Source of the DNA: Bryobacterales bacterium
GTDB lineage: Bacteria; Acidobacteriota; Terriglobia; Bryobacterales; UBA6623
Reading direction: 5' to 3'
Assembly: GCA_965219585.1 (NCBI GenBank)
Contig: CBDCOA010000003.1
Location: 4,898,625 to 4,962,624 of the forward strand
DNA: 64,000 nucleotides
The position numbers and the translations under genes are program-made. The notes under the pieces were generated by a model. It worked only from the letters and a program-made list of their open reading frames with translations, did not search any database and was not told where the DNA came from. Positions 6,035 to 33,051 of this stretch are shown piece by piece (the stretch's first letter is position 1; each line of letters opens with the position of its first letter).

Positions 6035-6045
6035 CGGAACCTAGA

Positions 6046-15374: not shown

Positions 15375-15383
15375 CCCCCACTG
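15375..15383. repeat. target-site duplication of IS copy 1 (outer side), CCCCCACTG
   Basis: Identical 9-mer directly abuts the other end of the IS at 18127..18135. Confidence 0.85.
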
Positions 15384-18126
15384 CTAGCGACCGGACATTG
15401 TTGATGCTGGGAGATTGGAGACATTGGTGGGCTGATGCTCACATTCGGTTTAGATGATGCCGAATGGACTTTCCGGATACTTGAGGGCGAGAAGAGGCAG
15501 ACCGGCGCAGTGCGGCAGACGCAGGCATCTGGCAGCACCGGGTTGGGGCTGCCCGGCCAGCGTTGCCGTGCCGGTTATTGCGTTGCGCAGGGGTCCCATG
15601 CGGCCGTCACGCAATGGATGGGAACACGGATCACCGGCGACCATCGGACAGGCTTCGAGTTGCGCCAAGGAGCGGTTCCCGACGCGGCCCGCAGCAAGGC
15701 CGGCGAGAGGATTCCCGACCCACGACAGTGCATCCAGGAGAGCGTTCTGCACTCCTGCTGACGATCCCCTACGGCGGCCCCCGCAACGTCTGCCGGTAGC
15801 GCACCATCGTTTGCAGCTGCCGGTACGCCTGCCACAGCACTTCGTTGCCCGGCAGTTCCCGGTGTTTCTTCGGACGCCAGCCCCGCATGCGCGCCAGCAG
15901 CAGCACCCAACTGCGAATGCCCGCTCCCACCGGCTGGCCGCGTTCCCGCGGCGGTCGCAAGCGCTCCGCCTCCGTCACGGCCTCGATCACGGCCAGCTCG
16001 TCCGCCGTGAGCACCTCCTCCGCCGGCGTGTCCGGCGCGTCCCGCGCGTAGCGGTCCAAGCTGAACACTCTCCAGGCCGTGATCGCGTCGAACACCAAGC
16101 ACTTGCCCAGCGCCTCCGCGTCCCGCAAGCGCCGGTCCTCGATCCGCGTGCCGCTCTTGAGCAGCCGGAAATACTCCTCGATCGCCCAGCGCCGCTCGTA
16201 CCAGCCCACGATCCGCTCGGCCCACTGTGCTGTCGCCGCCCCCTCGCTGCACAGCAGCAGCCACTCCAAGCCATCTTCCCCGGCTGGCGGGTTCGGCTCC
16301 AGCACCCGCACCAGCCACACTGGCAACGGCTGCGCCTGCCCGGCCTGCCCCTGCGGCGGCAGCAACTCCACCCGGCCGATTCGGATCTCCGTCACTGCCG
16401 TGCGCTTCTCCCGCGCCCGCTGCCCCCCTTGCGAGTCGATCTCCACCTTGCGGCCACTCACCAGCACCTCTTCGAAGTCCGGCTGCGCCTCGATCGGCCG
16501 GATCATCTCCGCCGCGAACGCCGCGTCCCACACCCGTACCTTGCGCTGTCGCCCCAAGTGCACCCGCACCAGCAACCCGGCCTCCTGCCGACGTTCCGCC
16601 TGCTGTTCGAACAAACCGAAAATGTCGCTCTCGCGGTCGCCCACCACCACGACCCGCGTCTGCGGACTGCAGCGCCCCAGTTCCTGACCCTGCTCGAACC
16701 CCCGGAACCAGCGCTGGCTCTCCTTCTCGCGCTCCGCCTCCCGGCCCGGGTCCTGCAACGGCCGCGCCCACTGCTCCAGACCGCTCACCCCCAGCGGACG
16801 CCCGCCTGCGGTGAATCCCACCGCCGCGTGCACGAACAGCCCGCGCGCACTGCTGGCGCGGTCCTTTAACGGCCCCAACCCGCTCGTGCAATCCTTCAGC
16901 TGCGTGTAGTTCAGCGTCGTGGTGTCCTGCACCAGCAACACCGTCGACTCCACCTGCACCCGCTCCAGCAAGGCCTCCCGGTGCGGTTGCAGAATGTCCT
17001 TGTCGCTCACCCTGCCATTGTGCAGCAGGCGCGTCGCCGCCCGCAGGTCCGCCTCGTGCGGGAAGATCGCCGGCAGAGCCTCCCCCGGGTGCCGCTCCCA
17101 GCTCTGCCCCATCTGCTCCAGCCGCTGGCGCAAGCGCCCGTCCGGCAGGTCCGAACGCAGGTACTCCCGGCGCGCCCAGTTCGCCTCCTCCTCCAGCACC
17201 AGCTCCGGGTACTGCCCCAGCTTCCGCTGCGGCTGCTGGCTCAGCTTGGGCTGCCAGTCCGGCTCCAAACCGAGCAGCCAGACCGCCTTCGCCGCGCCCG
17301 CCGCGCCCGCTCCCGGCGGCTGCCCCTGCGTGTGTCCCACGCACTGCCAGCCGGCCGCCTTGTAACTCGTGCCCGGGCGCGCGCTGTCCACGCAGGTCTC
17401 CACCAGCCAAGGCTGCACTCCGTGCGCCTGTTGCCAGTCCCGGGCCAGCGCCCGGATGGCCCTGCCCAGCACGTGCGAGGCTAGGTGCGGCACCTGCACG
17501 CCCGGCACGAGCAGGAAGCGATCGTTGTTCAGGACCCGCTCGATGTGCGCTCCGCGCGTGCGCTCGTCCCACTGCAGGAAGGCATCGCGCGGCCCCAGCC
17601 GGAACGGCGCCGCCACGAACGAGAGCACGCCCAGCGGCCCGCACTCGGCGCTGAGCAGATAGCTCAGCCGACAGCCGGGCGCCCGGGCCGAGCCCAGCGG
17701 ATGGTGCTGGTCCAGCAGGGCGGCGCACTGCCGCCGCTGCTCGGCGGAACTGGCCAGACCCACGCGCACCTCGCCGAGTTCCTGCAGCGAGCCGCGGAAG
17801 CTGGCCGCTGGCAATGACGGGTCCGCGCTGAAGCGTGGGCCGCCGGCGGGCGGCCCCGGCTGGGCTGCCGGCAGCGGCAGGCCCAGTTGGGCGGCCAACT
17901 CGGGCAGCGCCTTGCGCGCCGAGGCCGTGCAATACTCGCCCTTGGGATTGCGCCAGTCGTCCTGCTCGCAGACCCCGCGCCCCAAGGCCGCCCGCGACAG
18001 CTGGCCCTGCAGCAAGGCCTCGCGCAGCCAAGTGATCGTCTTCGGACGGAAGATGCGGAGCCCTACCCGCACTACTCCCGTTCTACACAGAACACCGTGC
18101 CTGTGTCAAGTATGTCCAGTCGCTAG
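15384..18126 (-). mobile_element. IS4-family (Tn5/IS50-like) insertion sequence, copy 1, 2,743 bp
   Basis: Reverse complement of 30299..33041: coordinates of all twin ORFs sum to 48425 and their translations are identical. Imperfect terminal IRs are 15384 CTAGCGACCGGACATTGTTGA and, at 18126 (reverse complement), CTAGCGACTGGACATACTTGA. Flanked by a 9-bp direct repeat. Confidence 0.9.
15769..18072 (-). CDS. Tn5-like DDE transposase with N-terminal DUF4338-like extension (767 aa)
   Basis: Identical to the 30353..32656 product. Tn5-like blocks are LLVQDTTTLNY (D), VVVGDRESDIFGLF (D) and YERRWAIEEYFRLLKSG (E). Confidence 0.9.
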   Translation of the reverse strand: MRVGLRIFRPKTITWLREALLQGQLSRAALGRGVCEQDDWRNPKGEYCTASARKALPELAAQLGLPLPAAQPGPPAGGPRFSADPSLPAASFRGSLQELGEVRVGLASSAEQRRQCAALLDQHHPLGSARAPGCRLSYLLSAECGPLGVLSFVAAPFRLGPRDAFLQWDERTRGAHIERVLNNDRFLLVPGVQVPHLASHVLGRAIRALARDWQQAHGVQPWLVETCVDSARPGTSYKAAGWQCVGHTQGQPPGAGAAGAAKAVWLLGLEPDWQPKLSQQPQRKLGQYPELVLEEEANWARREYLRSDLPDGRLRQRLEQMGQSWERHPGEALPAIFPHEADLRAATRLLHNGRVSDKDILQPHREALLERVQVESTVLLVQDTTTLNYTQLKDCTSGLGPLKDRASSARGLFVHAAVGFTAGGRPLGVSGLEQWARPLQDPGREAEREKESQRWFRGFEQGQELGRCSPQTRVVVVGDRESDIFGLFEQQAERRQEAGLLVRVHLGRQRKVRVWDAAFAAEMIRPIEAQPDFEEVLVSGRKVEIDSQGGQRAREKRTAVTEIRIGRVELLPPQGQAGQAQPLPVWLVRVLEPNPPAGEDGLEWLLLCSEGAATAQWAERIVGWYERRWAIEEYFRLLKSGTRIEDRRLRDAEALGKCLVFDAITAWRVFSLDRYARDAPDTPAEEVLTADELAVIEAVTEAERLRPPRERGQPVGAGIRSWVLLLARMRGWRPKKHRELPGNEVLWQAYRQLQTMVRYRQTLRGPP

Positions 18127-18135
18127 CCCCCACTG
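18127..18135. repeat. target-site duplication of IS copy 1 (inner side), CCCCCACTG
   Basis: Matches 15375..15383 exactly. Confidence 0.85.
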
Positions 18136-18298
18136 TTAGACCCGTGATTCAGCAGCCCAGCGACATGCGCGCACCGCCGGACCGCGGTCCATCGAGCGCC
18201 CGCAACCGCTCTTTCCCGACTGTCTCAGGTAGCTGTTAGGGTGAGAGATGGCGTGGGCCTCTCTGGAACCCCGCTAGGTCCGCGAGCTTAGTTCAGCG

Positions 18299-20326: not shown

Positions 20327-20332
20327 GCCCGC

Positions 20333-20845
20333 ATGCTACCGCGCGGACAGCGCGCTGCGCCTCGGCCCGGCCTCCCGGGCTTGGCGCCGCTGGCAATCCT
20401 TGCCTTGGCCCTGTGGGCCGCTTGCGGCGGGCCGCCGCAAGCGGCCCCGGGCGGCTCGGAGCCGGCGCAGCTTCCGACCACGCAGGTCACTCTGCCTGAC
20501 GGGGCCCTGATCGAAGCCGAGCTGGCGATTTCGTCTGAAGAGCAGGCGCGCGGGCTGATGTTCCGCGCCGAGCTGCCTCCGGATCGCGGCATGCTGTTCG
20601 TCGGCAGCCGCTCGACCCAGCGTTCGTTCTGGATGTACCAGTGCCTGATCCCGCTGGACATCATCTGGATGGACGGCGCGCACCGCATTGTCGAGATCGT
20701 CCGCTCGGCGCCGCCTTGCGCCTCGACGAATCCGGGCGGTTGCCCCAGTTATGGAGGCAACGCCAACTCGGTCTACGTCCTGGAACTGGCTGCTGGCCAG
20801 TCCGACGCTCACGGGCTGAGTATTGGCGATCGGCTAGACTTCTAG
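20333..20845 (+). CDS. DUF192 domain protein, probable lipoprotein/secreted
   Basis: 170 aa. Signal with LAILALALWAACGG. The DUF192-like core is ARGLMFR..LPPDRGMLFV......FWMYQCLIPLDIIWMD...IVEI. Confidence 0.65.
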   Translation: MLPRGQRAAPRPGLPGLAPLAILALALWAACGGPPQAAPGGSEPAQLPTTQVTLPDGALIEAELAISSEEQARGLMFRAELPPDRGMLFVGSRSTQRSFWMYQCLIPLDIIWMDGAHRIVEIVRSAPPCASTNPGGCPSYGGNANSVYVLELAAGQSDAHGLSIGDRLDF

Positions 20846-20916
20846 ACGTAACCCTACTGGCAGGGATTCCGCCATCCTTTGTCAGGGGTTGGTGCGTCCG
20901 CTCGCCCCCGCAGACT

Positions 20917-22200
20917 ATGTCCAAGAAGCGCCTCATCGCCATCGTGTTCGGCATCGCGATCGTCTACCTGGTGGGCAGCAGGGTGTACGAGGCCAACCAG
21001 CTGGCGAACGCTCCGGCCAAGAAGAAGGCCGCAGGCCGCGTGGTCAACGTCGACGTGACCCAGGCCCGCATCGGCTCCATCCGCGAGGAGCTGCTGCTGA
21101 CGGGCTCGCTGAAGCCGAAAGAGACCGTCGATATCAACCCGAAGATCACCGGCCGCATCGAGAAGATCAACTTCTTGGTCGGCGACTGGATGGCGCAGGG
21201 CGCGGTTGTCGCAGAAATCGAAGTCGACGAGCTGGCGCAGCAGGTCAGGCGCTCGGAAGCGTCCTATTCGGTGAGCGAGGCCAACATTTCCGCCCGCAAG
21301 GCCGAGCTGGCCCGTGCCAAGGCGGACCTTGACCGCGCCAAGCTGCTGTTCGACGAAGATCTGCTCTCGCCCCAGGAATTCCAGCAGTCCCAGACTTCTC
21401 TGGAGGTGCTGGAGGCCCAGGTCGAACTCGCCGAGGCCCAGCTCGAACAATCCACCGCGGAACTGACCGAGCTGCGCATCCGACTTGAGCAGGCCAAGAT
21501 CTACGCGCCCATGAGCGGCTTGGTCTCGGCCCGCTACGTAGACCCGGGCGCGCTCGTGACCCCGGGCAGCCCGATCATCCAGATCGTGAACCTTTCGACG
21601 ATGGTCACGCGCGGCAACGTGCCCGAGCGGAACATCGACAAGCTGGCCGTCGGCAACACGGCGGCCGTGCACGTGGACGCTATCCCTGGGCAACAGTTCG
21701 AGGGACGCATCGCGCGCATCGCGCCGGTGCTTGACGCGGCCACCCGCAGCGCCATCATCGAGATCGACATCCGCAATCCCGAAGCCGTGCTCAAGGCCGA
21801 GATGTTCGCGCGCATCACTCTGGACTTGGGCTCGACCCGCGAGGCCACACTGATCCCGCGCGACGGCTTGGTCTATCGCGGCCAGCAGCCCGGCGTCTAC
21901 GTGGTCCCGGACGAGCAGGACCGGCCGGTCTTTCGCGTCATTGAGACGGGGCTCACGCGCGAGGGGCAGATCGAGGTCCTGGCGAACCTGGACGCTGGCA
22001 CGCGCATCGTCGGCCGCGGGGCGACCATGCTGCGGGATGGCGACCGCATTAGCACCGGCCCGGGCGGCGGCCGCGGTGGTGCTGGCCCAGGCGGTGGCGC
22101 TGATGCAGGCGGTGGCCGCGGTGGTGCTGGCGGGGGTGGCGGCGGCCCCGGCGGTGGTGCCGGCGCGGCCCAGAAGGCTGCCACCAAGAGCGCCAGCTAG
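20917..22200 (+). CDS. efflux RND transporter periplasmic adaptor (MFP) with Gly-rich C-terminal tail
   Basis: ATG 20917 lies within ORF 20641..22200. N-terminal anchor MSKKRLIAIVFGIAIVYLVG. Has a coiled-coil hairpin region (AELARAKADLDRAKLLFDEDLLSPQEF...) and beta-barrel motifs (IYAPMSGLVSARYVDPGALV). The tail is GPGGGRGGAGPGGGADAGGGRGGAGGGGGGPGGG. Confidence 0.85.
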   Translation: MSKKRLIAIVFGIAIVYLVGSRVYEANQLANAPAKKKAAGRVVNVDVTQARIGSIREELLLTGSLKPKETVDINPKITGRIEKINFLVGDWMAQGAVVAEIEVDELAQQVRRSEASYSVSEANISARKAELARAKADLDRAKLLFDEDLLSPQEFQQSQTSLEVLEAQVELAEAQLEQSTAELTELRIRLEQAKIYAPMSGLVSARYVDPGALVTPGSPIIQIVNLSTMVTRGNVPERNIDKLAVGNTAAVHVDAIPGQQFEGRIARIAPVLDAATRSAIIEIDIRNPEAVLKAEMFARITLDLGSTREATLIPRDGLVYRGQQPGVYVVPDEQDRPVFRVIETGLTREGQIEVLANLDAGTRIVGRGATMLRDGDRISTGPGGGRGGAGPGGGADAGGGRGGAGGGGGGPGGGAGAAQKAATKSAS

Positions 22201-22207
22201 GCGTTTT

Positions 22208-22229
22208 CCCGGCCAGCCGGGCGATTTTT
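22208..22229 (+). terminator. weak intrinsic-terminator-like hairpin between adaptor and first RND gene
   Basis: CCCGG-ccag-CCGGG is followed by CGATTTTT, 8 nt after the adaptor stop codon. The stem is short (5 bp). Confidence 0.3.
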
Positions 22230-22308
22230 CTCGGCGCAAACCCCGGTTGCGGCGGGACTTGCTCGGGCTCGCGAGCTTGGAGCGAGCTAAGATTGGGCAG
22301 GGTGAGTT

Positions 22309-25300
22309 GTGAACTTTAGTCTCTCGACCGCATCCATCCACCGCCCCGTAACCGTCTTGATGGCGTGCTTGGTCGCCATCCTGCTGGGGGCGGTTGCGTT
22401 CGTCAACATCCCCGTCGACTTGATGCCGGAGATCGTCTACCCGACGATCAGCGTCAGGGCCGAGTACGCCGGCGTGGCCCCCGAAGAGATGGAGACGCTG
22501 GTGGTGCGCCCGCTGGAGGAGGCCTTCTCATCGGCCCCGCACGTGGAGCGCATCTCCAGTTCCGTGTACGAGGGACTGTGCTACGTTCGCGTCGGTTTCG
22601 ACTACGGGGTCGACATCGACGAAGCGGCCAATGAGCTGCGCACTCGCCTGGACCGCAGGCGCCGCTACTTGCCGGAGGACATGGATCCGCCGAGCATGTA
22701 CAAGTACGATTCCTCGCAGTATCCCATCATGTACCTAGCGGTTTCGGCCCGCGAGATGGGGCCGAAGGACCTGCGGCACTACGTCGAAAAACAGATCCAG
22801 CCGCGCCTCGAGCGAGTTCCCGGGATCGCCGCGTTCACGGTGCGCGGAGGGCTGCGCCGCGAGATCCACGTCGACCTGGATCTGAAGAAGCTGCGGGCGC
22901 TCGACCTGTCCATCCCGCACGTGGTCCAGATCTTGCGCCAGGAGAACATGAACCGCCCGGTCGGCCCGGTCGACGAGGGCCGCTTCGAAGTGCTGCTCCG
23001 CACGCGCGGCGAATTCCAGAGCTTGGAGGAGATTCGCGACGTCGTGTTGACCACGCGCAATAACGTGCCCGTGCATGTGCGGGACATCGCCACGGTTCAC
23101 GACAGTCACGAGGACATCGACTATCTGGTGAGCGTGGACGGCGAGCCCGGCGTGCGCATGTACGTCTACAAGCAGGCCGGGGCGAACACGGTCGAGGTCT
23201 CGGACGCCTTGTGGGTCGAGGTGGATCGCATCCACGAGGCCTTCCCCAATATCCGCATCGAGAAGACCCGCGACAGCGCCGACTTCATTCGCGCCTCGAT
23301 CGCCAACGTGCGCGGCGCCATGCTGCAGGGCGCCGGACTCGCGGTCGTGGTGCTGCTGTTCTTTCTGCGCAGCGTGTCGAGCACCCTGATCATCGGCATC
23401 GCGATCCCGATTTCAGTCATCGCCACGTTCGCGCTGATGTTCTTCAACGGGTTCACGCTCAACACCGTCTCGTTCGGCGGGCTGGCGCTGGGCGTCGGCA
23501 TGCTGGTCGACAACGCGATCGTGGTGCTGGAGAACGTCTACCGCCACCGCGAGGGAGGCAAGGCTCCGCTGGATGCGGCGGTCGAAGGCAGCCGCGAGGT
23601 CTCGATGGCGATTACCGCCTCCACGCTGACGACTGTGGCGGTCTTCGTGCCGGTGCTGTTCGTCGGGGGCATCGCCGCTCAGACCTTCAAGCAGCTCGCG
23701 TACGTGGTCAGCTTCGCGCTGCTGTGCTCGCTGGCGGTCGCGCTGATGGTGGTTCCGGGCTTGTGTGCGAAGTTGGCCAGCCGCCGCGGGCCGGGCGCGC
23801 AGGTCACCCAGATCAGCGATATGGCGCGCACCTGGCAGCGCAACATGGCCGCCGCATACGGCGGATCGCTGCAGTGGTCGCTCAACCACAAGGCCCCGGT
23901 AGTCGTGGTGGCGGCGCTGCTGTTCGCCGTGGCGGTCTACTTGATGCCGTATCTCGGCGTCGAATTGCAGCCGGAAGTTGATGAGGGCGAGGTCCGTGTC
24001 AGCGTCGAGCTCGAGCCCGGCACGCGGGTCGAGGTCACCGACAGCGTGATGCAGCACCTGCGCGCGGTCGCGATGGAGACCGCGCCGGAAATCACCACGG
24101 CCATGGTGACGGCCGGCGGGAGCTCCCGCAGCAGCGGATCGGGCGCCCATCTCGGCGAATTGCGCCTCAATCTCGTTCCAAAGACCGAGCGCAGCCGGTC
24201 GGCCCGCGATGTGGCCAACGAGCTGCGCGGGGCCTTGCAGATCCAGCCGGGCATGCTGGTCAGGACGCGCGTCTCGGGCGGCATGTTCAGGAGCCGGGGC
24301 AGCGATTCCGACGACGACCGCCTTTCGGTGGAGATCCGCGGGCACAACATGGACACGGCGGCCCAGCTGGCCGAGACGATCCGCGAGACCATGGAGCGCA
24401 CCCCGGGAATCGCCGAGCCTACGATCAGCCAGCGCCCCGGCATGCCGGAAATGCTGGTCGAGGTCGACCGCATGCGCGCTTCCAACATGGGCCTCAACGT
24501 GTCCGAGATCGCCCTCACGCTGGAAACGGCGATCGGCGGCGCTCGCAGTTCGATGTACCGCAAGGAGGGCGACGAGTACAACATCCTAGTGCGCCTGCGG
24601 CAGGAGGATCGCCTGGATCTTGACAACGTGGGGCGCATCCCCCTGACCACCCCGCTCGGTACGACCATCACGGCCGGAAGCGTGATCGAACTCCGGCGGC
24701 AGGAAGGCCCGACCTACATCAGCAGGGTGAACCAAGAGCGGCGGATGTTCGTCTCCGGAGCGCTGGCGGACCGGGACCTGGGCAGCATCGTCAACGATCT
24801 GGCGACCGAGTTCCGGGGGATGGCAATGCCCGAGGGGTTCTCGATCGAGTACGGCGGCGAGTACGAGGAACAGCAGGAGACCTTCCGCAACCTGTTCTTC
24901 GCGTCCATTCTGGCCCTGGTCTTGGTGTACATGGTGATGGCGGCGCAGTTCGAATCGCTCAAGGACCCCTTCCTGATCCTGTTTTCCGTGCCGCTGGCGG
25001 CCATCGGTGTCGTGCTGGTGCTCCTGCTCACCGAGACAACCTTCAACCAGCAGGCGTTCCTGGGCTTGATCGTGCTGCTCGGCATCGTGGTCAACAACGC
25101 CATCGTGCTGGTGGACTACACCAACCTGCTGCGCCGCGAGCACGGCTTGGGCCTGTACCGGGCCGCGGTGACCGCCGGCATGCGGCGGATGCGGCCGATC
25201 CTGATGACGACCATCACAACCGTGCTGGGCCTGGCTCCGATGGCGCTAGGGCTGGGCGAGGGTTCGGAATTGCAAGCTCCGATGGCGCGCGTGGTGATCG

Positions 25301-25434
25301 GCGGGCTGGCGACGTCCACGGTGATCACGCTGGTATTCATTCCGGTGATGTATGTCGCCTTCGAGGAACTGTTCTACCGGGGGCGGGTCGCTCAGCCGAC
25401 CATGCGCGCAGCCGAGTCCGTTGCGGGCGACTGA
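22309..25434 (+). CDS. efflux RND transporter permease subunit (AcrB/MdtB-like), paralog 1
   Basis: 1041 aa with a GTG start. N-terminus SIHRPVTVLMACLVAILLGAVAFVNIPVDLMPE. Twelve-TM RND layout with conserved GMLVDNAIVVLENV and VVNNAIVLVDY. Confidence 0.9.
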   Translation: MNFSLSTASIHRPVTVLMACLVAILLGAVAFVNIPVDLMPEIVYPTISVRAEYAGVAPEEMETLVVRPLEEAFSSAPHVERISSSVYEGLCYVRVGFDYGVDIDEAANELRTRLDRRRRYLPEDMDPPSMYKYDSSQYPIMYLAVSAREMGPKDLRHYVEKQIQPRLERVPGIAAFTVRGGLRREIHVDLDLKKLRALDLSIPHVVQILRQENMNRPVGPVDEGRFEVLLRTRGEFQSLEEIRDVVLTTRNNVPVHVRDIATVHDSHEDIDYLVSVDGEPGVRMYVYKQAGANTVEVSDALWVEVDRIHEAFPNIRIEKTRDSADFIRASIANVRGAMLQGAGLAVVVLLFFLRSVSSTLIIGIAIPISVIATFALMFFNGFTLNTVSFGGLALGVGMLVDNAIVVLENVYRHREGGKAPLDAAVEGSREVSMAITASTLTTVAVFVPVLFVGGIAAQTFKQLAYVVSFALLCSLAVALMVVPGLCAKLASRRGPGAQVTQISDMARTWQRNMAAAYGGSLQWSLNHKAPVVVVAALLFAVAVYLMPYLGVELQPEVDEGEVRVSVELEPGTRVEVTDSVMQHLRAVAMETAPEITTAMVTAGGSSRSSGSGAHLGELRLNLVPKTERSRSARDVANELRGALQIQPGMLVRTRVSGGMFRSRGSDSDDDRLSVEIRGHNMDTAAQLAETIRETMERTPGIAEPTISQRPGMPEMLVEVDRMRASNMGLNVSEIALTLETAIGGARSSMYRKEGDEYNILVRLRQEDRLDLDNVGRIPLTTPLGTTITAGSVIELRRQEGPTYISRVNQERRMFVSGALADRDLGSIVNDLATEFRGMAMPEGFSIEYGGEYEEQQETFRNLFFASILALVLVYMVMAAQFESLKDPFLILFSVPLAAIGVVLVLLLTETTFNQQAFLGLIVLLGIVVNNAIVLVDYTNLLRREHGLGLYRAAVTAGMRRMRPILMTTITTVLGLAPMALGLGEGSELQAPMARVVIGGLATSTVITLVFIPVMYVAFEELFYRGRVAQPTMRAAESVAGD

Positions 25435-25554
25435 TTCGTTCGCCCGTAACCCGATGCCACCAAAGCCGCGCCATATACATAGTTGGAGACACCGGCTGTC
25501 CCGTGGCGCGCCCCGGGGGGTGCGGGTTGCGGCTAGCCTCGCGAGGTGTGACGA

Positions 25555-28500
25555 ATGAGCCTTCCTGAGTTTTCGATCAAGCGACCGGTCACGGTGCTGA
25601 TGGCGGTGATGGTCTGCCTCCTGCTCGGCTTCATCGCATTCACCGAGATCCCGGTGGATCTGATGCCGGAGGTCAACTATCCGACCCTGAGCGTCACCAC
25701 CGACTACGAGGGCGTGGGTCCCGAGGAGATCGAGACGCTCATCAGTCGTCCCCTCGAGCAGATTGTCTCAGCGGCCCCTGGCGTCGAGCGCGTCACCTCG
25801 ACTTCCAGCGAAGGCCGCTCCTCGGTGCGCATCGAGTTCGTCTTCGGCACGGACATCGAAGTTGCGGCGGACGAGGTGCGCTCGCGCTTGGACCGGGGGC
25901 GCCGCACGCTGCCGGACGACATCGAGCCGCCCACGATCTTCAAGTTCGATGTGACCCAGTTCCCGATCATGTTTCTCACGGTGGCCACCGACGAGATGGA
26001 CCCGCGCGAGCTGCGGATGTTCACCGAGAAGAACATCCTGTATCGCTTCGAGCGCATCAAGGGCGTCGGCCAGGTGCGCGTCGGCGGCGGCCTGCGCCGC
26101 GAGATTCACATCGACCTGAACCTGGAAAAGCTACGCGCCCTCGATCTGTCGGTGGCGCAAGTGGTCAATACGGTGCGGGACGAGAACCTCAACCGCCCGG
26201 TGGGCCCGGTCAAGGAGGGCCGCTTCGACGTCCTGCTGCGCACCAGCGGCGAATTCAACAACGTCAACCAGCTGCTCGATGTGGCCTTGGCTTCCCGCGC
26301 CGGTGTCCCCGTGTATGTGCGCGACATCGCGGAGGTCGACGACTCGCACCCGGACATCCGCCACTACGTGGGCGTGAACGGCTCTCAGGCGCTCCGCCTG
26401 ATCATGTTCAAGCAGTCCGGTTCCAACACGGTCAAGGTCTCTGAGGGGATTTGGGAAGAAATCGCCGAGATTCATCGCGACTATCCGCACATCAGGATCG
26501 ACAAGACCATGGACACCGCGGATTTCATCAACGCCGCGATCCGCAATGTCGAGGCCGCCGCCGCCGTGGGCGCGGTGCTCGCGGTGTTCGTGCTGCTGCT
26601 GTTCCTGCGCAGCCTGTCCAGCACCTTGATCATCGGTGCGGCGATACCGATTTCGGTTGTCTCGACCTTTGCCCTGATGTACTTCAACGGCTTCACCCTC
26701 AACATCGTCTCCTTCGGCGGGCTGGCCCTAGGCGTGGGCATGCTCGTCGACAACGCGATCGTGGTGTTGGAGAACATCTACCGCCATCGCGAGGAGGGCA
26801 CCGAGTCGCGGCAGGCCGCGCTCGTCGGCAGCCGCGAGGTGGGCATGGCGATCACGGCATCCACGCTGACCACGATCGCCGTCTTCGTGCCGGTAATGTT
26901 CATCGGCGGCTACGCTGCGCAGACCTTCCAGCAACTGGCGTATGTGGTCAGCTTTTCGCTGCTGTGCTCGCTGGTCGTGGCGCTGACGGTCGTGCCCGCC
27001 CTGTGCTCGCGGCGCACGGGCACCGCTAGCGGCGGCGGGATCCGCATCCTGCGCTACGCCGAGCAGGTCATGGTCGCGCTGTCTCGGAACTATTCCGAGA
27101 TTATCCGCTGGTCGCTGGCAAACCGCCTGGTGGTGACGGGATTGGCCGCTGGGCTGTTTGTTTGCGCGATCTGGCTGACCGGCTATGTCGGCGTCGAACT
27201 GGAACCGCAGGTCGACGAGGGCCAGATCCGCATCAACCTGGAATCCGAGCCCGGAACGCGAGCGGAGGTGACGAAGGAGATCGTCGATCAAATGGAGGCG
27301 ATCATCATGCGCGACGTCCCCGAGATCGAATACATCATGACCGAGGCCGGCAGCGACAGCCCCTTCCGCTCGATCGCCACCCACATCGGCGAACTGCGCA
27401 TCACCTTGGTCGACCAGAGCCAGCGCGACCGCACGGCCCGCGAGATCACCAACATGCTCAGGCCCAAGCTGATGGCCGTGGCGCCGGGCGTGCAGCTGCG
27501 CACGCGCATTTCCAGCGGCAACTTCGGACGGCGGCGCGGCGGCGGCGATGGTGCCGACGACCGCCTGCAGGTCACGATTCGCGGCTACGACCCGGACACT
27601 ACCGCTAACCTCGCCCTGCAGGTGCGCGACGCCATGCTGTCGGTCGACGGCGTGGAGGAGGCACAGATCAGCCGCCGGCCCGGCACTCCCGAGATGCTGG
27701 TCCGCGTCGACAGGCTCAAGGCTGCCAGCGTGGGCATGTCGGTAGCGGAGGTCGCAGCTACTCTCGAGACCGCCGTGGGCGGGCGCCGCTCGACCTTCTA
27801 TCGCGAGCAGGGCGACGAGTACGACATCGTGGTGCGCCTGCGCGAGGAGGACCGCCTGCAACTCGACCAGGTTGGGCGCATCCCTCTGCGCACGCCGCAA
27901 GGGAATCTCATCTACGCCAACGACGTCGTTCGCCTGAATCGCCAGGAGGGCCCGGTCGAGATCAACCGCGTCGACCAGGAGCGCATCGTCTATGTCTCGG
28001 GCACGATCGGTGATCGCAACTTGGGCGCCATCATTGCGGACTTGCGCGGCGAGGTCGCCCAGATCAACCGGCCCGACGGCTACGAGATCCGCTTCGGCGG
28101 CGAGTGGGAGGACCAGCAGGAGTCCTTCCGGGAGCTGACGTTCGCGGGCATCCTGGCGCTGCTGCTGGTCTACATGGTCATGGCGGCGCAGTTCGAGTCG
28201 CTGCGCGACCCGTTCATCATCTTGTTCTCGATCCCGCTGGCGGCCATTGGCGTTGTCACCATGCTCGTGATCACGGAGACCACCTTCAACATGCAGGGGT
28301 TCCTCGGCGTGATTGTGCTGGTGGGCATTGTCGTCAACAACGCGATCGTGCTCATCGACTACACGAACCAACTGCGCCGCGACCACGGGTACGGCATCAT
28401 GGATTCCGTCATCACGGCCGGCGGCCGCCGGCTGCGGCCGATCATGATGACCACGATCACGACCATCCTGGGCCTCACGCCGATGGCGCTCGGCCTGGGC

Positions 28501-28686
28501 GAGGGGTCGGAGCTGCAAGTGCCGATGGCGCGCGTGGTGATCGGCGGGCTGCTGACCTCCACGCTCATCACCCTCGTGTTCATCCCGGTGGTGTACGCCA
28601 CGTTGGAGGAGTTCGCCGAAAAGCTGGCGGGGCGTCGCCGGCGGGGCGTCGTGTCTGAGCCTTTGCAGCCTGCGGAGGGCGATTAA
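25555..28686 (+). CDS. efflux RND transporter permease subunit, paralog 2
   Basis: 1043 aa. Collinear with paralog 1 (SIKRPVTVLMAVMVCLLLGFIAFTEIPVDLMPE; GMLVDNAIVVLENI; VVNNAIVLIDY). Confidence 0.9.
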   Translation: MSLPEFSIKRPVTVLMAVMVCLLLGFIAFTEIPVDLMPEVNYPTLSVTTDYEGVGPEEIETLISRPLEQIVSAAPGVERVTSTSSEGRSSVRIEFVFGTDIEVAADEVRSRLDRGRRTLPDDIEPPTIFKFDVTQFPIMFLTVATDEMDPRELRMFTEKNILYRFERIKGVGQVRVGGGLRREIHIDLNLEKLRALDLSVAQVVNTVRDENLNRPVGPVKEGRFDVLLRTSGEFNNVNQLLDVALASRAGVPVYVRDIAEVDDSHPDIRHYVGVNGSQALRLIMFKQSGSNTVKVSEGIWEEIAEIHRDYPHIRIDKTMDTADFINAAIRNVEAAAAVGAVLAVFVLLLFLRSLSSTLIIGAAIPISVVSTFALMYFNGFTLNIVSFGGLALGVGMLVDNAIVVLENIYRHREEGTESRQAALVGSREVGMAITASTLTTIAVFVPVMFIGGYAAQTFQQLAYVVSFSLLCSLVVALTVVPALCSRRTGTASGGGIRILRYAEQVMVALSRNYSEIIRWSLANRLVVTGLAAGLFVCAIWLTGYVGVELEPQVDEGQIRINLESEPGTRAEVTKEIVDQMEAIIMRDVPEIEYIMTEAGSDSPFRSIATHIGELRITLVDQSQRDRTAREITNMLRPKLMAVAPGVQLRTRISSGNFGRRRGGGDGADDRLQVTIRGYDPDTTANLALQVRDAMLSVDGVEEAQISRRPGTPEMLVRVDRLKAASVGMSVAEVAATLETAVGGRRSTFYREQGDEYDIVVRLREEDRLQLDQVGRIPLRTPQGNLIYANDVVRLNRQEGPVEINRVDQERIVYVSGTIGDRNLGAIIADLRGEVAQINRPDGYEIRFGGEWEDQQESFRELTFAGILALLLVYMVMAAQFESLRDPFIILFSIPLAAIGVVTMLVITETTFNMQGFLGVIVLVGIVVNNAIVLIDYTNQLRRDHGYGIMDSVITAGGRRLRPIMMTTITTILGLTPMALGLGEGSELQVPMARVVIGGLLTSTLITLVFIPVVYATLEEFAEKLAGRRRRGVVSEPLQPAEGD

Positions 28687-28802
28687 TTCGCGGGCCGGGC
28701 GGTTTCTTGCAATTCCCGGTCGCGATCTGATCGCTGTGTTGTGTAGAATCAATGGTGCCCGACCAGCCTCGGGCGTGAAGATTCACTGAAGGAGTACCAA
28801 TC

Positions 28803-29498
28803 ATGAGAACCATCCGTTCGGCCAGCCTAGCCGTTCTCTGCCTCGCTTTGACGATGGGCGCGCTTTCCGCCGCCACGCTGTCCGGTCCCGAGATCCGCGG
28901 CAGCTACATCGAATCGCGCAACGCCGAGATCTACGCCTCGCACTGCTTCGCCAACAGCGAAGTCGGCATCACTGGCGATCTTGCCGTGATGGCGTGGGAC
29001 ATCGAGCAGGGCAGCTTCAAGGGCGTGTCCCTGGCGAATACTAGGGTCGTGGCCGTGGTCAACGCGACGTCCACTATCGGCAATCCGTTCGGCGACGCGC
29101 TCCCGGCGAAATCGATGCTGATCTTCGACGAGGCCACCTCCGTGCTGCAGCGCGGGGCCCTGGCGGCCTTCGTCAAGGCCCAGGCCGGCCCGCTCGTGCA
29201 CAACGTGGTCCACACCGACACGGCCCCGATCGAGATCGATTTCCACGGCAGCCTGCACGACCGCGTGGCGACCCTGCGCGCCGGCGAGATCGTCTCGCTG
29301 GAGACGCGGGAGATCCGCGGCAGCGATTCGCTGTGCCACCTTGACGACATCTACTACGAGCCTCTGGTCGCGCTGGATCACGCCATGCCGGCGTTTGCCA
29401 TCGAGCAGTCCTTCCGCGGCGACGGCCTTGGCCACCAGATGCGCGAGTACCGGCGCTCGAGCGCCTATCTGGGCACCTTCGCCGTCAGCGGAAGCTAG
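28803..29498 (+). CDS. hypothetical secreted protein
   Basis: 231 aa. Signal peptide MRTIRSASLAVLCLALTMGALSA. No family recognised with confidence. Confidence 0.5.
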   Translation: MRTIRSASLAVLCLALTMGALSAATLSGPEIRGSYIESRNAEIYASHCFANSEVGITGDLAVMAWDIEQGSFKGVSLANTRVVAVVNATSTIGNPFGDALPAKSMLIFDEATSVLQRGALAAFVKAQAGPLVHNVVHTDTAPIEIDFHGSLHDRVATLRAGEIVSLETREIRGSDSLCHLDDIYYEPLVALDHAMPAFAIEQSFRGDGLGHQMREYRRSSAYLGTFAVSGS

Positions 29499-29619
29499 GC
29501 CTCCCGCTCACACAGGCTGGATAGGTTCCGTGCCGGGGCCGCCGCTGTCGGCGGCTCCGGCTTGTCCCATTTGTTAGGTGTCGGCCGGACCGGCCGGCGG
29601 AGTTCGCGAGGAGAATTGG

Positions 29620-30258
29620 ATGCGACGCTCGTGCCGCTTTGCGATGGTTCTTGGGGCGCTCGCCCTGCTGCCAGCCGGGCTGGCCCAGAAGTACACGGCC
29701 GAGGGCGGCGCGCCGCTGCCCGCCAGCGTGCCGGAGGCGACGCGCGAGCTGGTGGCCGCCGAGGGTGTCGCCGTCAAGTCTGGCGACGAGGTGGTGATGC
29801 GCTTCTGGATGCGCACCGCACCGTTCGAGGGCGATCCCGCCAGCGGTTTCGGAGTGCGCTTCGACAACGTCCCCGAGGGCGCGTTCCTGGGCGTGCTCGA
29901 GTTCGTGGGGCGGGGCTCGGATTTCCGCGAGCAGTCCGTGCCCGCGGGCGTGTACACCTTGCGCTTCGGCCTGCACCCCGAGGACGGCAATCACATGGGC
30001 GTTGCCGCCAGCCGCGACTTCGGCTTGCTGGCCCCCGTGGAAAAGGACCTGGAGATCACCCGCAACTTCGATTTTGACGGCATCGTGGAATTGAGCGCCG
30101 ATGTCGGCAACCCGCACCCCACCGTCGCGCGCCTCGAGCTGCCGGAGGGCGATCAGGGGCCGCACCTTTGGGAGAACGACTACGAGCACTGGGTGCTCGA
30201 CGTTACGGTGGCCGACACCGTGGTCGGTATCGTGGTGGACGGCCATGCCGAGGAGTAG
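29620..30258 (+). CDS. hypothetical secreted protein
   Basis: ATG 29620 lies within ORF 29578..30258 and is preceded by GAGGAG. Signal peptide MRRSCRFAMVLGALALLPAGLA. No family recognised. Confidence 0.5.
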   Translation: MRRSCRFAMVLGALALLPAGLAQKYTAEGGAPLPASVPEATRELVAAEGVAVKSGDEVVMRFWMRTAPFEGDPASGFGVRFDNVPEGAFLGVLEFVGRGSDFREQSVPAGVYTLRFGLHPEDGNHMGVAASRDFGLLAPVEKDLEITRNFDFDGIVELSADVGNPHPTVARLELPEGDQGPHLWENDYEHWVLDVTVADTVVGIVVDGHAEE

Positions 30259-30288
30259 CCTGCCGCAGGGAGCGGTCTGACGCGAACA

Positions 30289-30298
30289 GTGGTTTTGC
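30289..30298. repeat. target-site duplication of IS copy 2 (inner side), GTGGTTTTGC
   Basis: Identical 10-mer abuts the other IS end at 33042..33051. This is 9 bp plus one possibly fortuitous base. Confidence 0.8.
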
Positions 30299-30315
30299 CT
30301 AGCGACTGGACATAC

Positions 30316-30345
30316 TTGACACAGGCACGGTGTTCTGTGTAGAAC
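30316..30345 (+). promoter_or_regulatory. candidate transposase promoter inside the left IS end (mirror site in copy 1 at 18080..18109, minus strand)
   Basis: Perfect -35 TTGACA (30316-30321), an 18-nt spacer, then TAGAAC (30340-30345). GTG 30353 lies 7 nt after the -10, so the mRNA would be near-leaderless. Confidence 0.3.
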
Positions 30346-30352
30346 GGGAGTA

Positions 30353-32656
30353 GTGCGGGTAGGGCTCCGCATCTTCCGTCCGAAGACGATCACTTGGCTG
30401 CGCGAGGCCTTGCTGCAGGGCCAGCTGTCGCGGGCGGCCTTGGGGCGCGGGGTCTGCGAGCAGGACGACTGGCGCAATCCCAAGGGCGAGTATTGCACGG
30501 CCTCGGCGCGCAAGGCGCTGCCCGAGTTGGCCGCCCAACTGGGCCTGCCGCTGCCGGCAGCCCAGCCGGGGCCGCCCGCCGGCGGCCCACGCTTCAGCGC
30601 GGACCCGTCATTGCCAGCGGCCAGCTTCCGCGGCTCGCTGCAGGAACTCGGCGAGGTGCGCGTGGGTCTGGCCAGTTCCGCCGAGCAGCGGCGGCAGTGC
30701 GCCGCCCTGCTGGACCAGCACCATCCGCTGGGCTCGGCCCGGGCGCCCGGCTGTCGGCTGAGCTATCTGCTCAGCGCCGAGTGCGGGCCGCTGGGCGTGC
30801 TCTCGTTCGTGGCGGCGCCGTTCCGGCTGGGGCCGCGCGATGCCTTCCTGCAGTGGGACGAGCGCACGCGCGGAGCGCACATCGAGCGGGTCCTGAACAA
30901 CGATCGCTTCCTGCTCGTGCCGGGCGTGCAGGTGCCGCACCTAGCCTCGCACGTGCTGGGCAGGGCCATCCGGGCGCTGGCCCGGGACTGGCAACAGGCG
31001 CACGGAGTGCAGCCTTGGCTGGTGGAGACCTGCGTGGACAGCGCGCGCCCGGGCACGAGTTACAAGGCGGCCGGCTGGCAGTGCGTGGGACACACGCAGG
31101 GGCAGCCGCCGGGAGCGGGCGCGGCGGGCGCGGCGAAGGCGGTCTGGCTGCTCGGTTTGGAGCCGGACTGGCAGCCCAAGCTGAGCCAGCAGCCGCAGCG
31201 GAAGCTGGGGCAGTACCCGGAGCTGGTGCTGGAGGAGGAGGCGAACTGGGCGCGCCGGGAGTACCTGCGTTCGGACCTGCCGGACGGGCGCTTGCGCCAG
31301 CGGCTGGAGCAGATGGGGCAGAGCTGGGAGCGGCACCCGGGGGAGGCTCTGCCGGCGATCTTCCCGCACGAGGCGGACCTGCGGGCGGCGACGCGCCTGC
31401 TGCACAATGGCAGGGTGAGCGACAAGGACATTCTGCAACCGCACCGGGAGGCCTTGCTGGAGCGGGTGCAGGTGGAGTCGACGGTGTTGCTGGTGCAGGA
31501 CACCACGACGCTGAACTACACGCAGCTGAAGGATTGCACGAGCGGGTTGGGGCCGTTAAAGGACCGCGCCAGCAGTGCGCGCGGGCTGTTCGTGCACGCG
31601 GCGGTGGGATTCACCGCAGGCGGGCGTCCGCTGGGGGTGAGCGGTCTGGAGCAGTGGGCGCGGCCGTTGCAGGACCCGGGCCGGGAGGCGGAGCGCGAGA
31701 AGGAGAGCCAGCGCTGGTTCCGGGGGTTCGAGCAGGGTCAGGAACTGGGGCGCTGCAGTCCGCAGACGCGGGTCGTGGTGGTGGGCGACCGCGAGAGCGA
31801 CATTTTCGGTTTGTTCGAACAGCAGGCGGAACGTCGGCAGGAGGCCGGGTTGCTGGTGCGGGTGCACTTGGGGCGACAGCGCAAGGTACGGGTGTGGGAC
31901 GCGGCGTTCGCGGCGGAGATGATCCGGCCGATCGAGGCGCAGCCGGACTTCGAAGAGGTGCTGGTGAGTGGCCGCAAGGTGGAGATCGACTCGCAAGGGG
32001 GGCAGCGGGCGCGGGAGAAGCGCACGGCAGTGACGGAGATCCGAATCGGCCGGGTGGAGTTGCTGCCGCCGCAGGGGCAGGCCGGGCAGGCGCAGCCGTT
32101 GCCAGTGTGGCTGGTGCGGGTGCTGGAGCCGAACCCGCCAGCCGGGGAAGATGGCTTGGAGTGGCTGCTGCTGTGCAGCGAGGGGGCGGCGACAGCACAG
32201 TGGGCCGAGCGGATCGTGGGCTGGTACGAGCGGCGCTGGGCGATCGAGGAGTATTTCCGGCTGCTCAAGAGCGGCACGCGGATCGAGGACCGGCGCTTGC
32301 GGGACGCGGAGGCGCTGGGCAAGTGCTTGGTGTTCGACGCGATCACGGCCTGGAGAGTGTTCAGCTTGGACCGCTACGCGCGGGACGCGCCGGACACGCC
32401 GGCGGAGGAGGTGCTCACGGCGGACGAGCTGGCCGTGATCGAGGCCGTGACGGAGGCGGAGCGCTTGCGACCGCCGCGGGAACGCGGCCAGCCGGTGGGA
32501 GCGGGCATTCGCAGTTGGGTGCTGCTGCTGGCGCGCATGCGGGGCTGGCGTCCGAAGAAACACCGGGAACTGCCGGGCAACGAAGTGCTGTGGCAGGCGT
32601 ACCGGCAGCTGCAAACGATGGTGCGCTACCGGCAGACGTTGCGGGGGCCGCCGTAG
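30353..32656 (+). CDS. Tn5-like DDE transposase with N-terminal DUF4338-like extension (767 aa)
   Basis: Residues ~300-767 are collinear with Tn5 Tnp as I recall it (Tnp DNA-binding N-domain, DDE blocks DTTTLNY / GDRESD / RWAIEEYF). Residues 1-~290 carry HHPLGS...NNDRFLLVPGVQVPHLASHVL...DW...GVQPWLVETCVD...GTSYKAAGWQCVGHTQG. Confidence 0.9.
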   Translation: MRVGLRIFRPKTITWLREALLQGQLSRAALGRGVCEQDDWRNPKGEYCTASARKALPELAAQLGLPLPAAQPGPPAGGPRFSADPSLPAASFRGSLQELGEVRVGLASSAEQRRQCAALLDQHHPLGSARAPGCRLSYLLSAECGPLGVLSFVAAPFRLGPRDAFLQWDERTRGAHIERVLNNDRFLLVPGVQVPHLASHVLGRAIRALARDWQQAHGVQPWLVETCVDSARPGTSYKAAGWQCVGHTQGQPPGAGAAGAAKAVWLLGLEPDWQPKLSQQPQRKLGQYPELVLEEEANWARREYLRSDLPDGRLRQRLEQMGQSWERHPGEALPAIFPHEADLRAATRLLHNGRVSDKDILQPHREALLERVQVESTVLLVQDTTTLNYTQLKDCTSGLGPLKDRASSARGLFVHAAVGFTAGGRPLGVSGLEQWARPLQDPGREAEREKESQRWFRGFEQGQELGRCSPQTRVVVVGDRESDIFGLFEQQAERRQEAGLLVRVHLGRQRKVRVWDAAFAAEMIRPIEAQPDFEEVLVSGRKVEIDSQGGQRAREKRTAVTEIRIGRVELLPPQGQAGQAQPLPVWLVRVLEPNPPAGEDGLEWLLLCSEGAATAQWAERIVGWYERRWAIEEYFRLLKSGTRIEDRRLRDAEALGKCLVFDAITAWRVFSLDRYARDAPDTPAEEVLTADELAVIEAVTEAERLRPPRERGQPVGAGIRSWVLLLARMRGWRPKKHRELPGNEVLWQAYRQLQTMVRYRQTLRGPP

Positions 32657-33041
32657 GGGATCGTCAGCAGGAGTGCAGAACGCTCTCCTGGATGCACTGT
32701 CGTGGGTCGGGAATCCTCTCGCCGGCCTTGCTGCGGGCCGCGTCGGGAACCGCTCCTTGGCGCAACTCGAAGCCTGTCCGATGGTCGCCGGTGATCCGTG
32801 TTCCCATCCATTGCGTGACGGCCGCATGGGACCCCTGCGCAACGCAATAACCGGCACGGCAACGCTGGCCGGGCAGCCCCAACCCGGTGCTGCCAGATGC
32901 CTGCGTCTGCCGCACTGCGCCGGTCTGCCTCTTCTCGCCCTCAAGTATCCGGAAAGTCCATTCGGCATCATCTAAACCGAATGTGAGCATCAGCCCACCA
33001 ATGTCTCCAATCTCCCAGCATCAACAATGTCCGGTCGCTAG

Positions 33042-33051
33042 GTGGTTTTGC
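33042..33051. repeat. target-site duplication of IS copy 2 (outer side), GTGGTTTTGC
   Basis: Matches 30289..30298. Confidence 0.8.

Follow-up and report, generated by a model that had tools for sequence, protein, structure and literature searches.

We analyzed a stretch of 64,000 nucleotides from the genome of a Bryobacterales bacterium (Acidobacteriota), referred to here as the window, and concentrated on a 767-amino-acid open reading frame (ORF) at 30353-32656, which is present, with its GTG start, as a sequence-only reading of the window had described it. Judged from sequence comparisons, the ORF is the single gene of an active insertion sequence (IS) of the IS4 family and the Tn5/IS50 cut-and-paste type. 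Its product is a complete Tn5-type enzyme (end-binding domain, DDE core, and a probable dimerisation tail), and the roughly 290 extra residues in front of it are predicted to fold into a winged-helix domain and a GNAT domain. The extra module is portable: across at least six DDE lineages, its relatives either are joined to a transposase in one protein or occupy an ORF directly ahead of the transposase gene. We propose, with a probability of roughly 0.4 for the whole chain of argument, that it is a built-in acyl-transfer or DNA-marking module of the Mom type that controls or protects transposition. The parts of the protein, with confidence given as the predicted local distance difference test score (pLDDT), are the following.

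30353..30541, + strand: winged-helix-like domain, residues 1-63, three helices and short strands (pLDDT mostly >90)
30626..31192, + strand: GNAT-fold domain, the DUF4338/PF14236 core, residues ~92-280 (Pfam, Foldseek, conservation)
31118..31243, + strand: end of the GNAT domain (its last strand and helix) and a linker of poor conservation, residues ~256-297 (pLDDT falls at 285-297)
31244..31417, + strand: Tn5-type end-binding domain, residues 298-355 (PF14706, NF049926)
31418..32653, + strand: RNase-H-like DDE core and putative C-terminal Tn5-like dimerisation region, residues 356-767 (profile and model comparison)

The transposase part (residues ~291-767) scored 281.6 bits against the NCBIfam model transpos_IS4_3 (NF033590; cut-off 160; residues 345-757), and its beginning matched both Pfam Tnp_DNA_bind (PF14706; E 4.4e-8, 33.2 bits against a cut-off of 24; residues 298-355) and the end-binding model NF049926 (E 4.4e-10, 39.1 bits against a cut-off of 27). 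When 51 full-length homologues were combined into a profile, it aligned to the Tn5 transposase (1MUH) with an E value of 2e-60, collinear from Tn5 residue ~5-9 to 465-469, which bears out the collinearity proposed in the sequence-only reading for residues ~300-767. The triad D383/D479/E632 aligned to Tn5 D97, D188, and E326, and the Y-(2)-R-(3)-E-(6)-K signature (Y625/R628/E632/K639) to Tn5 Y319/R322/E326/K333; the DDE and YREK residues are invariant or at least 90% conserved across the 51 homologues. Each of the three blocks picked out in the sequence-only reading, LLVQDTTTLNY, VVVGDRESD, and YERRWAIEEYFRLLK, falls on a catalytic position of Tn5 (D97, D188, and Y319/R322/E326/K333, respectively). 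At the C terminus PF02281 matched weakly (E 0.086, 13.6 bits, cut-off 26.7), and 12 of 43 homologues match this family. The full-length AlphaFold model reached a pLDDT of 87 and a predicted template-modelling score (pTM) of 0.79, and its comparison with the Tn5 transposase gave a template-modelling (TM) score of 0.80 normalised to Tn5 (E 4e-27).

The resemblance to Tn5/IS50 extends along nearly the entire Tn5 transposase, including the end-binding domain, the DDE/YREK core, and the C-terminal region, and it includes short terminal inverted repeats and 9-bp target duplications. Tn5 differs in being without the ~290-residue winged-helix and GNAT part of the window protein, and its identity to the window transposase is only ~24%. 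Unlike those of IS50, the repeats of the window IS (CTAGCGAC...) contain no GATC Dam sites, and the window IS adds a non-coding tail of ~370 bp.

The IS is 2743 bp long and occurs in the window as two copies, inverted relative to each other and 100% identical.

15384..18126, - strand: IS copy A, 2743 bp, the inverted partner of copy B
15769-18072, - strand: transposase ORF of copy A, translation identical to that of copy B
15375..15383 and 18127-18135: target-site duplication of copy A, CCCCCACTG, 9 bp
30299..33041, + strand: IS copy B, IS4 family, Tn5/IS50-like, 2743 bp, ends and target-site duplications read directly
30299..30313, + strand: left terminal inverted repeat of copy B, CTAGCGACTGGACAT, 15 bp
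30353..32656, + strand: transposase ORF of copy B, 767 amino acids, GTG start 54 nt inside the left end
32657..33026: 3' tail of copy B, apparently non-coding, 370 bp from the stop codon to the right inverted repeat
33027..33041, + strand: right terminal inverted repeat of copy B (reverse complement CTAGCGACCGGACAT)
30289..30298 (left) and 33042-33051 (right): target-site duplication of copy B, GTGGTTTTGC, a 10-bp match

The left repeat equals the reverse complement of the right repeat at 14 of 15 positions, the common form being CTAGCGAC(T/C)GGACAT. The earlier observation of two identical copies with target duplications was confirmed, with 9 bp for copy A and a 10-bp match for copy B at 100% identity. 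That both copies had moved together as a composite was rejected, because their outer flanks are different and a separate duplication surrounds each; the two copies were inserted independently.

Scanning one genome per species, we found 35 related loci, nearly all of them in metagenome-assembled genomes (MAGs) of Bryobacterales (Acidobacteriota), with up to about 18 in one genome. A frame of 767-769 codons is intact at 21 of the 35 loci with an amino acid identity of 80-83%, and every one of these begins VRVGLRIFRP. We located the ends of 14 related copies. All 14 place the start codon 54 nt inside the left end and have kept the inverted repeats, with matched changes at both ends (for example CTAGCGGCCGGTCAT in L013); about nine show an exact 9-bp duplication and two more a 10-bp match. 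Since identical copies carry their own duplications, and intact relatives have kept their inverted repeats and mostly show 9-bp duplications, we conclude that this IS family is active and that the fusion is its working transposase.

The DNA has 70% G+C, in which long open frames occur in all six frames, so an open frame alone proves little. The assignment of residues 1 to ~290 to DUF4338, made in the sequence-only reading, was confirmed by the hidden Markov model check: Pfam PF14236 (DUF4338, DruA) matched residues 96-250 with an E value of 5.8e-18 (65.5 bits against a cut-off of 27), and residues 1-297 alone scored 68 bits. We estimated the ratio of nonsynonymous to synonymous substitution rates (dN/dS, omega) from comparisons among three lineages, with bootstrap 95% intervals. 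Omega was 0.39-0.51 for residues 96-255, with the interval below 1 in the three comparisons, and 0.27-0.30 for the transposase part. Constraint was weak in residues 1-95 (omega 0.44-0.75, the interval reaching 1 in two of three comparisons). The linker (residues 256-297; amino acid identity 60-67%) looks unconstrained when compared with L002, L006, and L009 (dN/dS about 1.4) and gave 0.6-0.75 when compared with L013. Public data contain more than 100 full-length fusions of 750-790 amino acids with identities of 39-98%, which takes the fusion far beyond chance, and many of the clusters have tens to more than 100 members. The consensus of full-length homologues has no conserved start codon in the linker. 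The extra module is under purifying selection. Omega below 1, the GTG placed 54 nt from the IS end in relatives, and a fusion kept down to 39% identity indicate that the upstream part is translated, and the start near residue ~290 considered earlier found no support.

We modelled residues 1-297 by AF2 (AlphaFold 2) with 48 homologues. The model had a pLDDT of 87.8 and the element order beta1-alpha1-alpha2-beta2-4-alpha3-beta5-alpha4-beta6; residues 64-91, between the two predicted domains, were disordered. In the winged-helix part C35, W40, N42, C48, and P57 are invariant in full-length homologues, and the conserved residues of the GNAT domain are H124, R162, D163, W168, R185, L197-A198-S199, E225, G234, and Y237. 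A Foldseek search of the PDB returned 180 matches with E<=1e-3, the top 50 of which are all GNATs (probability 1.00), and the best solved structures were RimI (TM score 0.70 normalised to the target), SpeG, PaiA, MccE, and FeeM. Structure prediction and fold search, both suggested by the sequence-only reading, gave a confident winged-helix and GNAT assignment, and the lack of a DUF4338 match that this reading had allowed for did not materialise. DUF4338 has been called a GNAT domain before, in the context of DndF fusions, in a paper of the Aravind group (PMC10853773). We counted residue conservation over 157 DUF4338 domains. The canonical Q/R-x-x-G-x-G/A pyrophosphate loop before alpha3 is absent; the window protein has Q193-V-P-H-L-A198 at this place, the loop consensus is R/Q-V-P-H/N-L-A, and the central glycine occurs in only 14 of the 157 domains. 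We infer that the GNAT module is catalytically competent. The earlier statement that the biochemical role of the domain is unknown can be sharpened to a predicted GNAT fold whose nearest sequence relatives are Mom-type DNA modifiers.

We then asked which genes the module is partnered with. An exhaustive HMMER search with residues 1-295 yielded 4586 clusters (50% identity) at E<=1e-3; our survey of associations covers the best 150 of these clusters and nine neighbourhoods (seven of free-standing modules, two on plasmids) and is not a census. Forty-two of the best 150 are at least 600 amino acids long, and Tnp_DNA_bind was found in 34 of 43 proteins, the window protein included. Among 131 cluster representatives new to that search, phmmer found a Tn5-like part after the GNAT domain in 53. 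Other members have the module fused to ISAzo13 transposases (P0162, P0211), an IS630-type transposase with a helix-turn-helix (HTH) and DDE_3 (P0169), a different DDE_Tnp_1 protein (P0132), a DDE_5 transposase (P0052), and, on a Thiodictyon plasmid, an ISAs1-family transposase. Free-standing modules of about 300 amino acids overlap the start of a Tn5-like transposase gene (two identical loci), overlap a DUF4277 and DDE_Tnp_1 (IS1634-like) gene by 4 nt (one locus), lie 280 nt upstream of a DDE_Tnp_1_assoc (ISAs1-like) gene (two loci), or lie upstream of an IS4 transposase with a nested IS91 between them (one plasmid locus); three other free-standing loci look like remnants. The survey of DUF4338 next to or fused with transposases that had been proposed returned IS4-type partners together with other DDE lineages. 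Because the module accompanies six DDE lineages, fused or adjacent, it most likely serves transposons as such. IstB of IS21, TnpB of IS66, and TnpB of IS200/605 are comparable in that an accessory protein travels with the transposase, and in some relatives the present module is likewise a separate upstream ORF; in contrast to them, the window module has a GNAT fold and spans several transposase families. One metagenomic member (P0174, 594 amino acids) joins the DUF4338 module to an adenylate/guanylate cyclase catalytic domain and has no transposase.

Mom of phage Mu is a GNAT that moves glycine from Gly-tRNA(Gly) to adenine N6 in double-stranded DNA; it serves this transposing phage as an anti-restriction function (PMC13219725). 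Of the GNAT families, Mom was the only one detected among 49 members of the present family, none of which matched a classical acetyltransferase family of Pfam at E<=0.1: five of the 49 matched Pfam Mom (PF25680; best E 4.5e-5) and 15 matched phrog_1384, "Mom-like DNA modification protein" (best E 5.8e-8; window protein E 0.0055). Alignment by hhalign with the Mom family was collinear over 120-182 columns (E 0.8-1.9e-3). Among viral structure matches a Mom-annotated protein ranked 12th, below eleven that are uncharacterised or otherwise annotated, and above every match annotated as an acetyl- or acyl-transferase. Mutagenesis has shown that H48, Y49, R101, S114, D139, and Y149 of Mom matter (PMC7261163; numbered +10 in PMC13219725), and R101 is conserved in Mom homologues and not across GNATs (PMC7261163). 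The hhalign alignment pairs these residues as follows.

Mom H48 with H124, conserved in 153/156 domains
Mom Y49 with P125, P in 100 and Y in 49
Mom R101 with R185, conserved in 156/157
Mom S114 with S199, conserved in 154/157
Mom D139 with D229, D or E in 107/157
Mom Y149 with Y237, conserved in 140/156

On these comparisons we lean towards placing the extra module in the Mom-like branch of the GNATs. The two share a collinear GNAT core from which the canonical P-loop glycine for coenzyme A (CoA) is missing, the H-Y pair of Mom is found in about a third of family members, and both are carried by DDE-transposing elements. They differ in several respects: Mom is a free-standing late phage protein, and the window module has an N-terminal winged helix and a two-helix insert at 160-179 with the invariant R162, D163, and W168. 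Several observations weigh against the relationship and what we build on it. The window protein itself has no PF25680 match at E<=1, and in the reciprocal scan none of 43 Mom homologues matched PF14236. The link is statistically weak, with an hhalign probability of only 14-25%, the pairing of R185 with R101 is unstable and differs between alignment runs, and the Mom structure 8bv8 lies outside the top 50 fold matches in the PDB. An HTH-like insertion between beta6 and beta7 is essential for the activity of Mom (PMC13219725); it is absent from the module, which has only a short Gly/Ala/Pro loop (residues ~250-261) at that site and, instead, a winged helix at its N terminus. Constraint on the N-terminal part is also looser than that on the transposase part (omega 0.5 vs 0.3).

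If the module is of the Mom type, the transposase would deliver it to DNA in cis, where it would probably put an acyl or aminoacyl group on DNA at or near the element, most plausibly on adenine N6. The resulting mark would be the element's own epigenetic mark, licensing or restraining transposition and coupling excision to replication. Fully modified ends or a fully modified promoter would stay silent, and excision would occur only just after replication, when the sister copy can repair the donor. Alternatively, the mark may serve target immunity or protect the DNA of the element from restriction. Host Dam methylation controls the transposition of IS10 and IS50 through an adenine-N6 mark on the ends or promoter that is tied to replication. 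The likeness of the proposed self-made mark to this control is a functional analogy only, since the marking enzyme there belongs to the host, whereas the window element would itself supply the modifier and would use acyl or aminoacyl transfer, not methylation.

The alternative that survives best, although we consider it unlikely, is that the GNAT domain is a protein acetyltransferase (lysine or N-terminal) whose targets would be the transposase itself or host factors (of the nucleoid, of repair, or of defence, for instance), with the effect of tuning transposition to acetyl-CoA levels. The best solved-structure matches, RimI, SpeG, and PaiA, are acetyltransferases of proteins or small amines, and the conserved E225 and Y237 sit at what we take to be the positions of the general base and acid of RimI-type GNATs. 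Mom itself has been reported to bind acetyl-CoA (PMC7261163). The detection of Mom and of no classical acetyltransferase family among the 49 members speaks against this reading, as do the replacement of the canonical pyrophosphate loop by R/Q-V-P-H/N-L-A and the correspondence of the invariant R185 to a residue described as Mom-specific (PMC7261163).

We regard two further possibilities as rather less probable still. The module could be non-catalytic and gate the activity of the transposase or its choice of target, either by sensing a ligand (acyl-CoA or charged tRNA) or by adding a further domain for DNA binding or oligomerisation; a winged helix ahead of the GNAT domain, a degenerate CoA-binding motif, and the full-length pTM of 0.79, which suggests a defined arrangement of the domains, would all suit such a role. 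Conservation of 90-99% at the equivalents of the catalytic residues of Mom (H, R, S, and Y), across 157 domains with different partners, is more enzyme-like, and a Tn5-type end-binding domain is already complete in the protein. The module could also be a passenger with an anti-restriction, anti-defence, or defence function that is fused only for co-inheritance, in line with the occurrence of DUF4338 as part of Druantia type I systems and of DndF proteins (PMC10853773), with the anti-restriction function of Mom in a transposing phage (PMC13219725), and with the family member that is fused to a nucleotide cyclase and not to a transposase. For a passenger, however, there would be no need, in six DDE lineages, to be translationally fused to the transposase or to be encoded immediately ahead of it. 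Moreover, transposases of the Tn5/IS10 type act in cis and are usually produced in very small amounts, and a scarce, cis-acting protein fits a local function over a genome-wide one.

It is extremely improbable that the N-terminal 290 codons are untranslated or a decaying remnant, with the real transposase start near residue 290: chance frames abound in DNA of this G+C content and split forms with a separate upstream ORF occur elsewhere, but we rejected this start on the significant family match, the confident predicted fold, selection (omega <1), the depth of conservation (a fused frame intact in 21/21 full-length relatives and in more than 100 database proteins), and the lack of a conserved start in the linker.

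The sequence-only reading had also called the domain DruA and defence-associated. This stands at the level of the Pfam family and fails beyond it: there is no PADLOC DruA match, no Druantia context, and the sampled family is mostly associated with transposases. The PADLOC DruA models did not match the full protein at E<=1 or residues 1-297 at E<=10, and other IS-fused members gave only short local matches (E 1e-5 to 1e-7); on the absent match we rejected the protein as a Druantia component. druB-druE, including DruE, a YprA-like helicase, are missing from the context, where the gene is the only conserved ORF of the IS and the neighbours beyond the IS are an RND efflux operon and ribosomal protein genes. 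Because there is no PADLOC match, and the gene stands alone in a 2.7-kb IS with non-Druantia neighbours, "DruA" is here the name of a Pfam family and not evidence of a defence role. The protein shares PF14236 with DruA of Druantia type I, and in other IS-fused members the winged-helix and GNAT layout is covered by the 297-position profile; it differs in its embedding in an IS without druB-E neighbours.

Druantia type I, whose DruA is a DUF4338 protein, gives a PacBio "m6A" signal at CAGCTGNC without a methylase domain, and the signal has not been assigned to a gene (bioRxiv 10.1101/2024.04.14.589459). A Mom-like DruA would explain this signal, a suggestion that is ours and not that of the cited authors. 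The broadest form of the idea, that DUF4338/"DruA" is a Mom-like adenine-N6 writer that was captured repeatedly by at least six DDE families as a cis-acting module and is also the missing modifier of Druantia type I, we consider doubtful.

The label that public records give to these proteins is either "IS4 family transposase", as for MXY70035.1, or "hypothetical protein", and the architecture is already on record, the Pfam domain pair being precomputed in databases. Our literature search, with most subscription journals and ISfinder outside it, found no paper that pairs DruA with a transposase, and the papers on DUF4338/PF14236 were not about transposases. As far as we found, the association with transposases across families and the Mom-like active site are new observations. 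No bacterial cut-and-paste transposase is better understood than Tn5, on which tagmentation is based, and existing assays can therefore be applied directly to a natural enzyme of the Tn5 type that carries an additional, probably enzymatic, domain. That the module accompanies transposases of at least six lineages points to a layer of transposon biology that is general and has gone undescribed, be it self-marking, regulation, or protection. Should the Mom-like reading be right, the module would represent a new class of DNA-modifying enzymes that are brought to specific sites by a transposase, and a concrete candidate for the marking of self DNA by Druantia type I. Should it be wrong, the IS subfamily remains well defined, and its extra domain merits a name in IS classification.

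The start of the transposase gene is preceded by GGGAG, 2 nt ahead of the GTG. A scan for sigma-70 promoters found only a lone perfect TTGACA at 30316-30321, within the left end and 32 nt 5' of the GTG, and no acceptable -10 partner for it. At the other end of the gene, the 3' tail aligns with that of relatives, with variable-length inserts and with indels that are not multiples of three, and no ORF is kept across them. In L002, L005, L006, and L013 it measures 370 to ~700 bp and consists of a common core beside the right end and lineage-specific inserts, the tail of L002 being ~260 bp longer than that of L005. No Rfam family, PHROG match, conserved ORF, or terminator accounts for the tail, and the Rfam scan of the whole window gave zero matches. 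A second gene in the tail was considered and rejected: its ORFs of 108 (- strand) and 100 (+ strand) amino acids have no PHROG match, are broken by non-triplet indels in a 98%-identical copy, and are not kept in an 80% relative, and we therefore take them for chance ORFs of high-G+C DNA.

Some related copies depart from the simple pattern. Four Bryobacterales copies (L017, L020, L022, and L028) are split by 1.7-2.5-kb insertions at IS nt ~300, ~620, ~670, and ~1710, which points to nested insertions of other elements and also explains many "truncated" database proteins of ~500 amino acids. The right flank of L002 (GAGAACTGC) equals the left flank of L031, and no matching duplication surrounds either copy, the pattern left when two IS copies of the same genome recombine (by inversion or deletion). 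L001 (859-3159) is a 98%-identical copy in a MAG bin labelled Alphaproteobacteria, the other relatives all being from Bryobacterales, and its frame is interrupted by a single stop at about codon 237, where the conserved Tyr would be; recent transfer, mis-binning, or sequencing error could be the cause. L037 and L038, which lie at separate places of one genome and share an identical first ORF, encode a split fusion in which a 324-amino-acid DUF4338 ORF (6001-6975) ends in the linker and the Tn5-like ORF begins at 6951 in the -1 frame, 25 nt upstream of the DUF4338 stop; the 25-nt overlap in L037 contains no slippery heptamer for a programmed frameshift. The ENA contigs encoding P0216, P0515, and P0518 are 2742 bp long, one base below the length of the IS, and are most likely collapsed-repeat products of the assembler.

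Between the two inverted IS copies of the window lie 12.2 kb (18127-30298) in a layout like that of a Tn5-like composite transposon. The segment encodes a fused E1 dehydrogenase, an HlyD-type membrane-fusion protein, two tandem AcrB-type RND pumps, a DUF1326 protein, and a hypothetical protein; since each IS has its own duplication, it has not (yet) moved as a unit. The pump genes (22309-25434 and 25555-28686) are tandem AcrB/AcrD/AcrF paralogues of 1041 and 1043 amino acids, with an in-register DNA identity of 72-81% at an offset of about 3240 nt, and the HlyD-type gene contains a short G+C-rich imperfect tandem of 45 nt at 22063-22167. Near the start of the window, 21-120 and 1650-1749 form a 100-nt direct repeat (79% identity, 1629 nt apart) that probably reflects paralogous genes.

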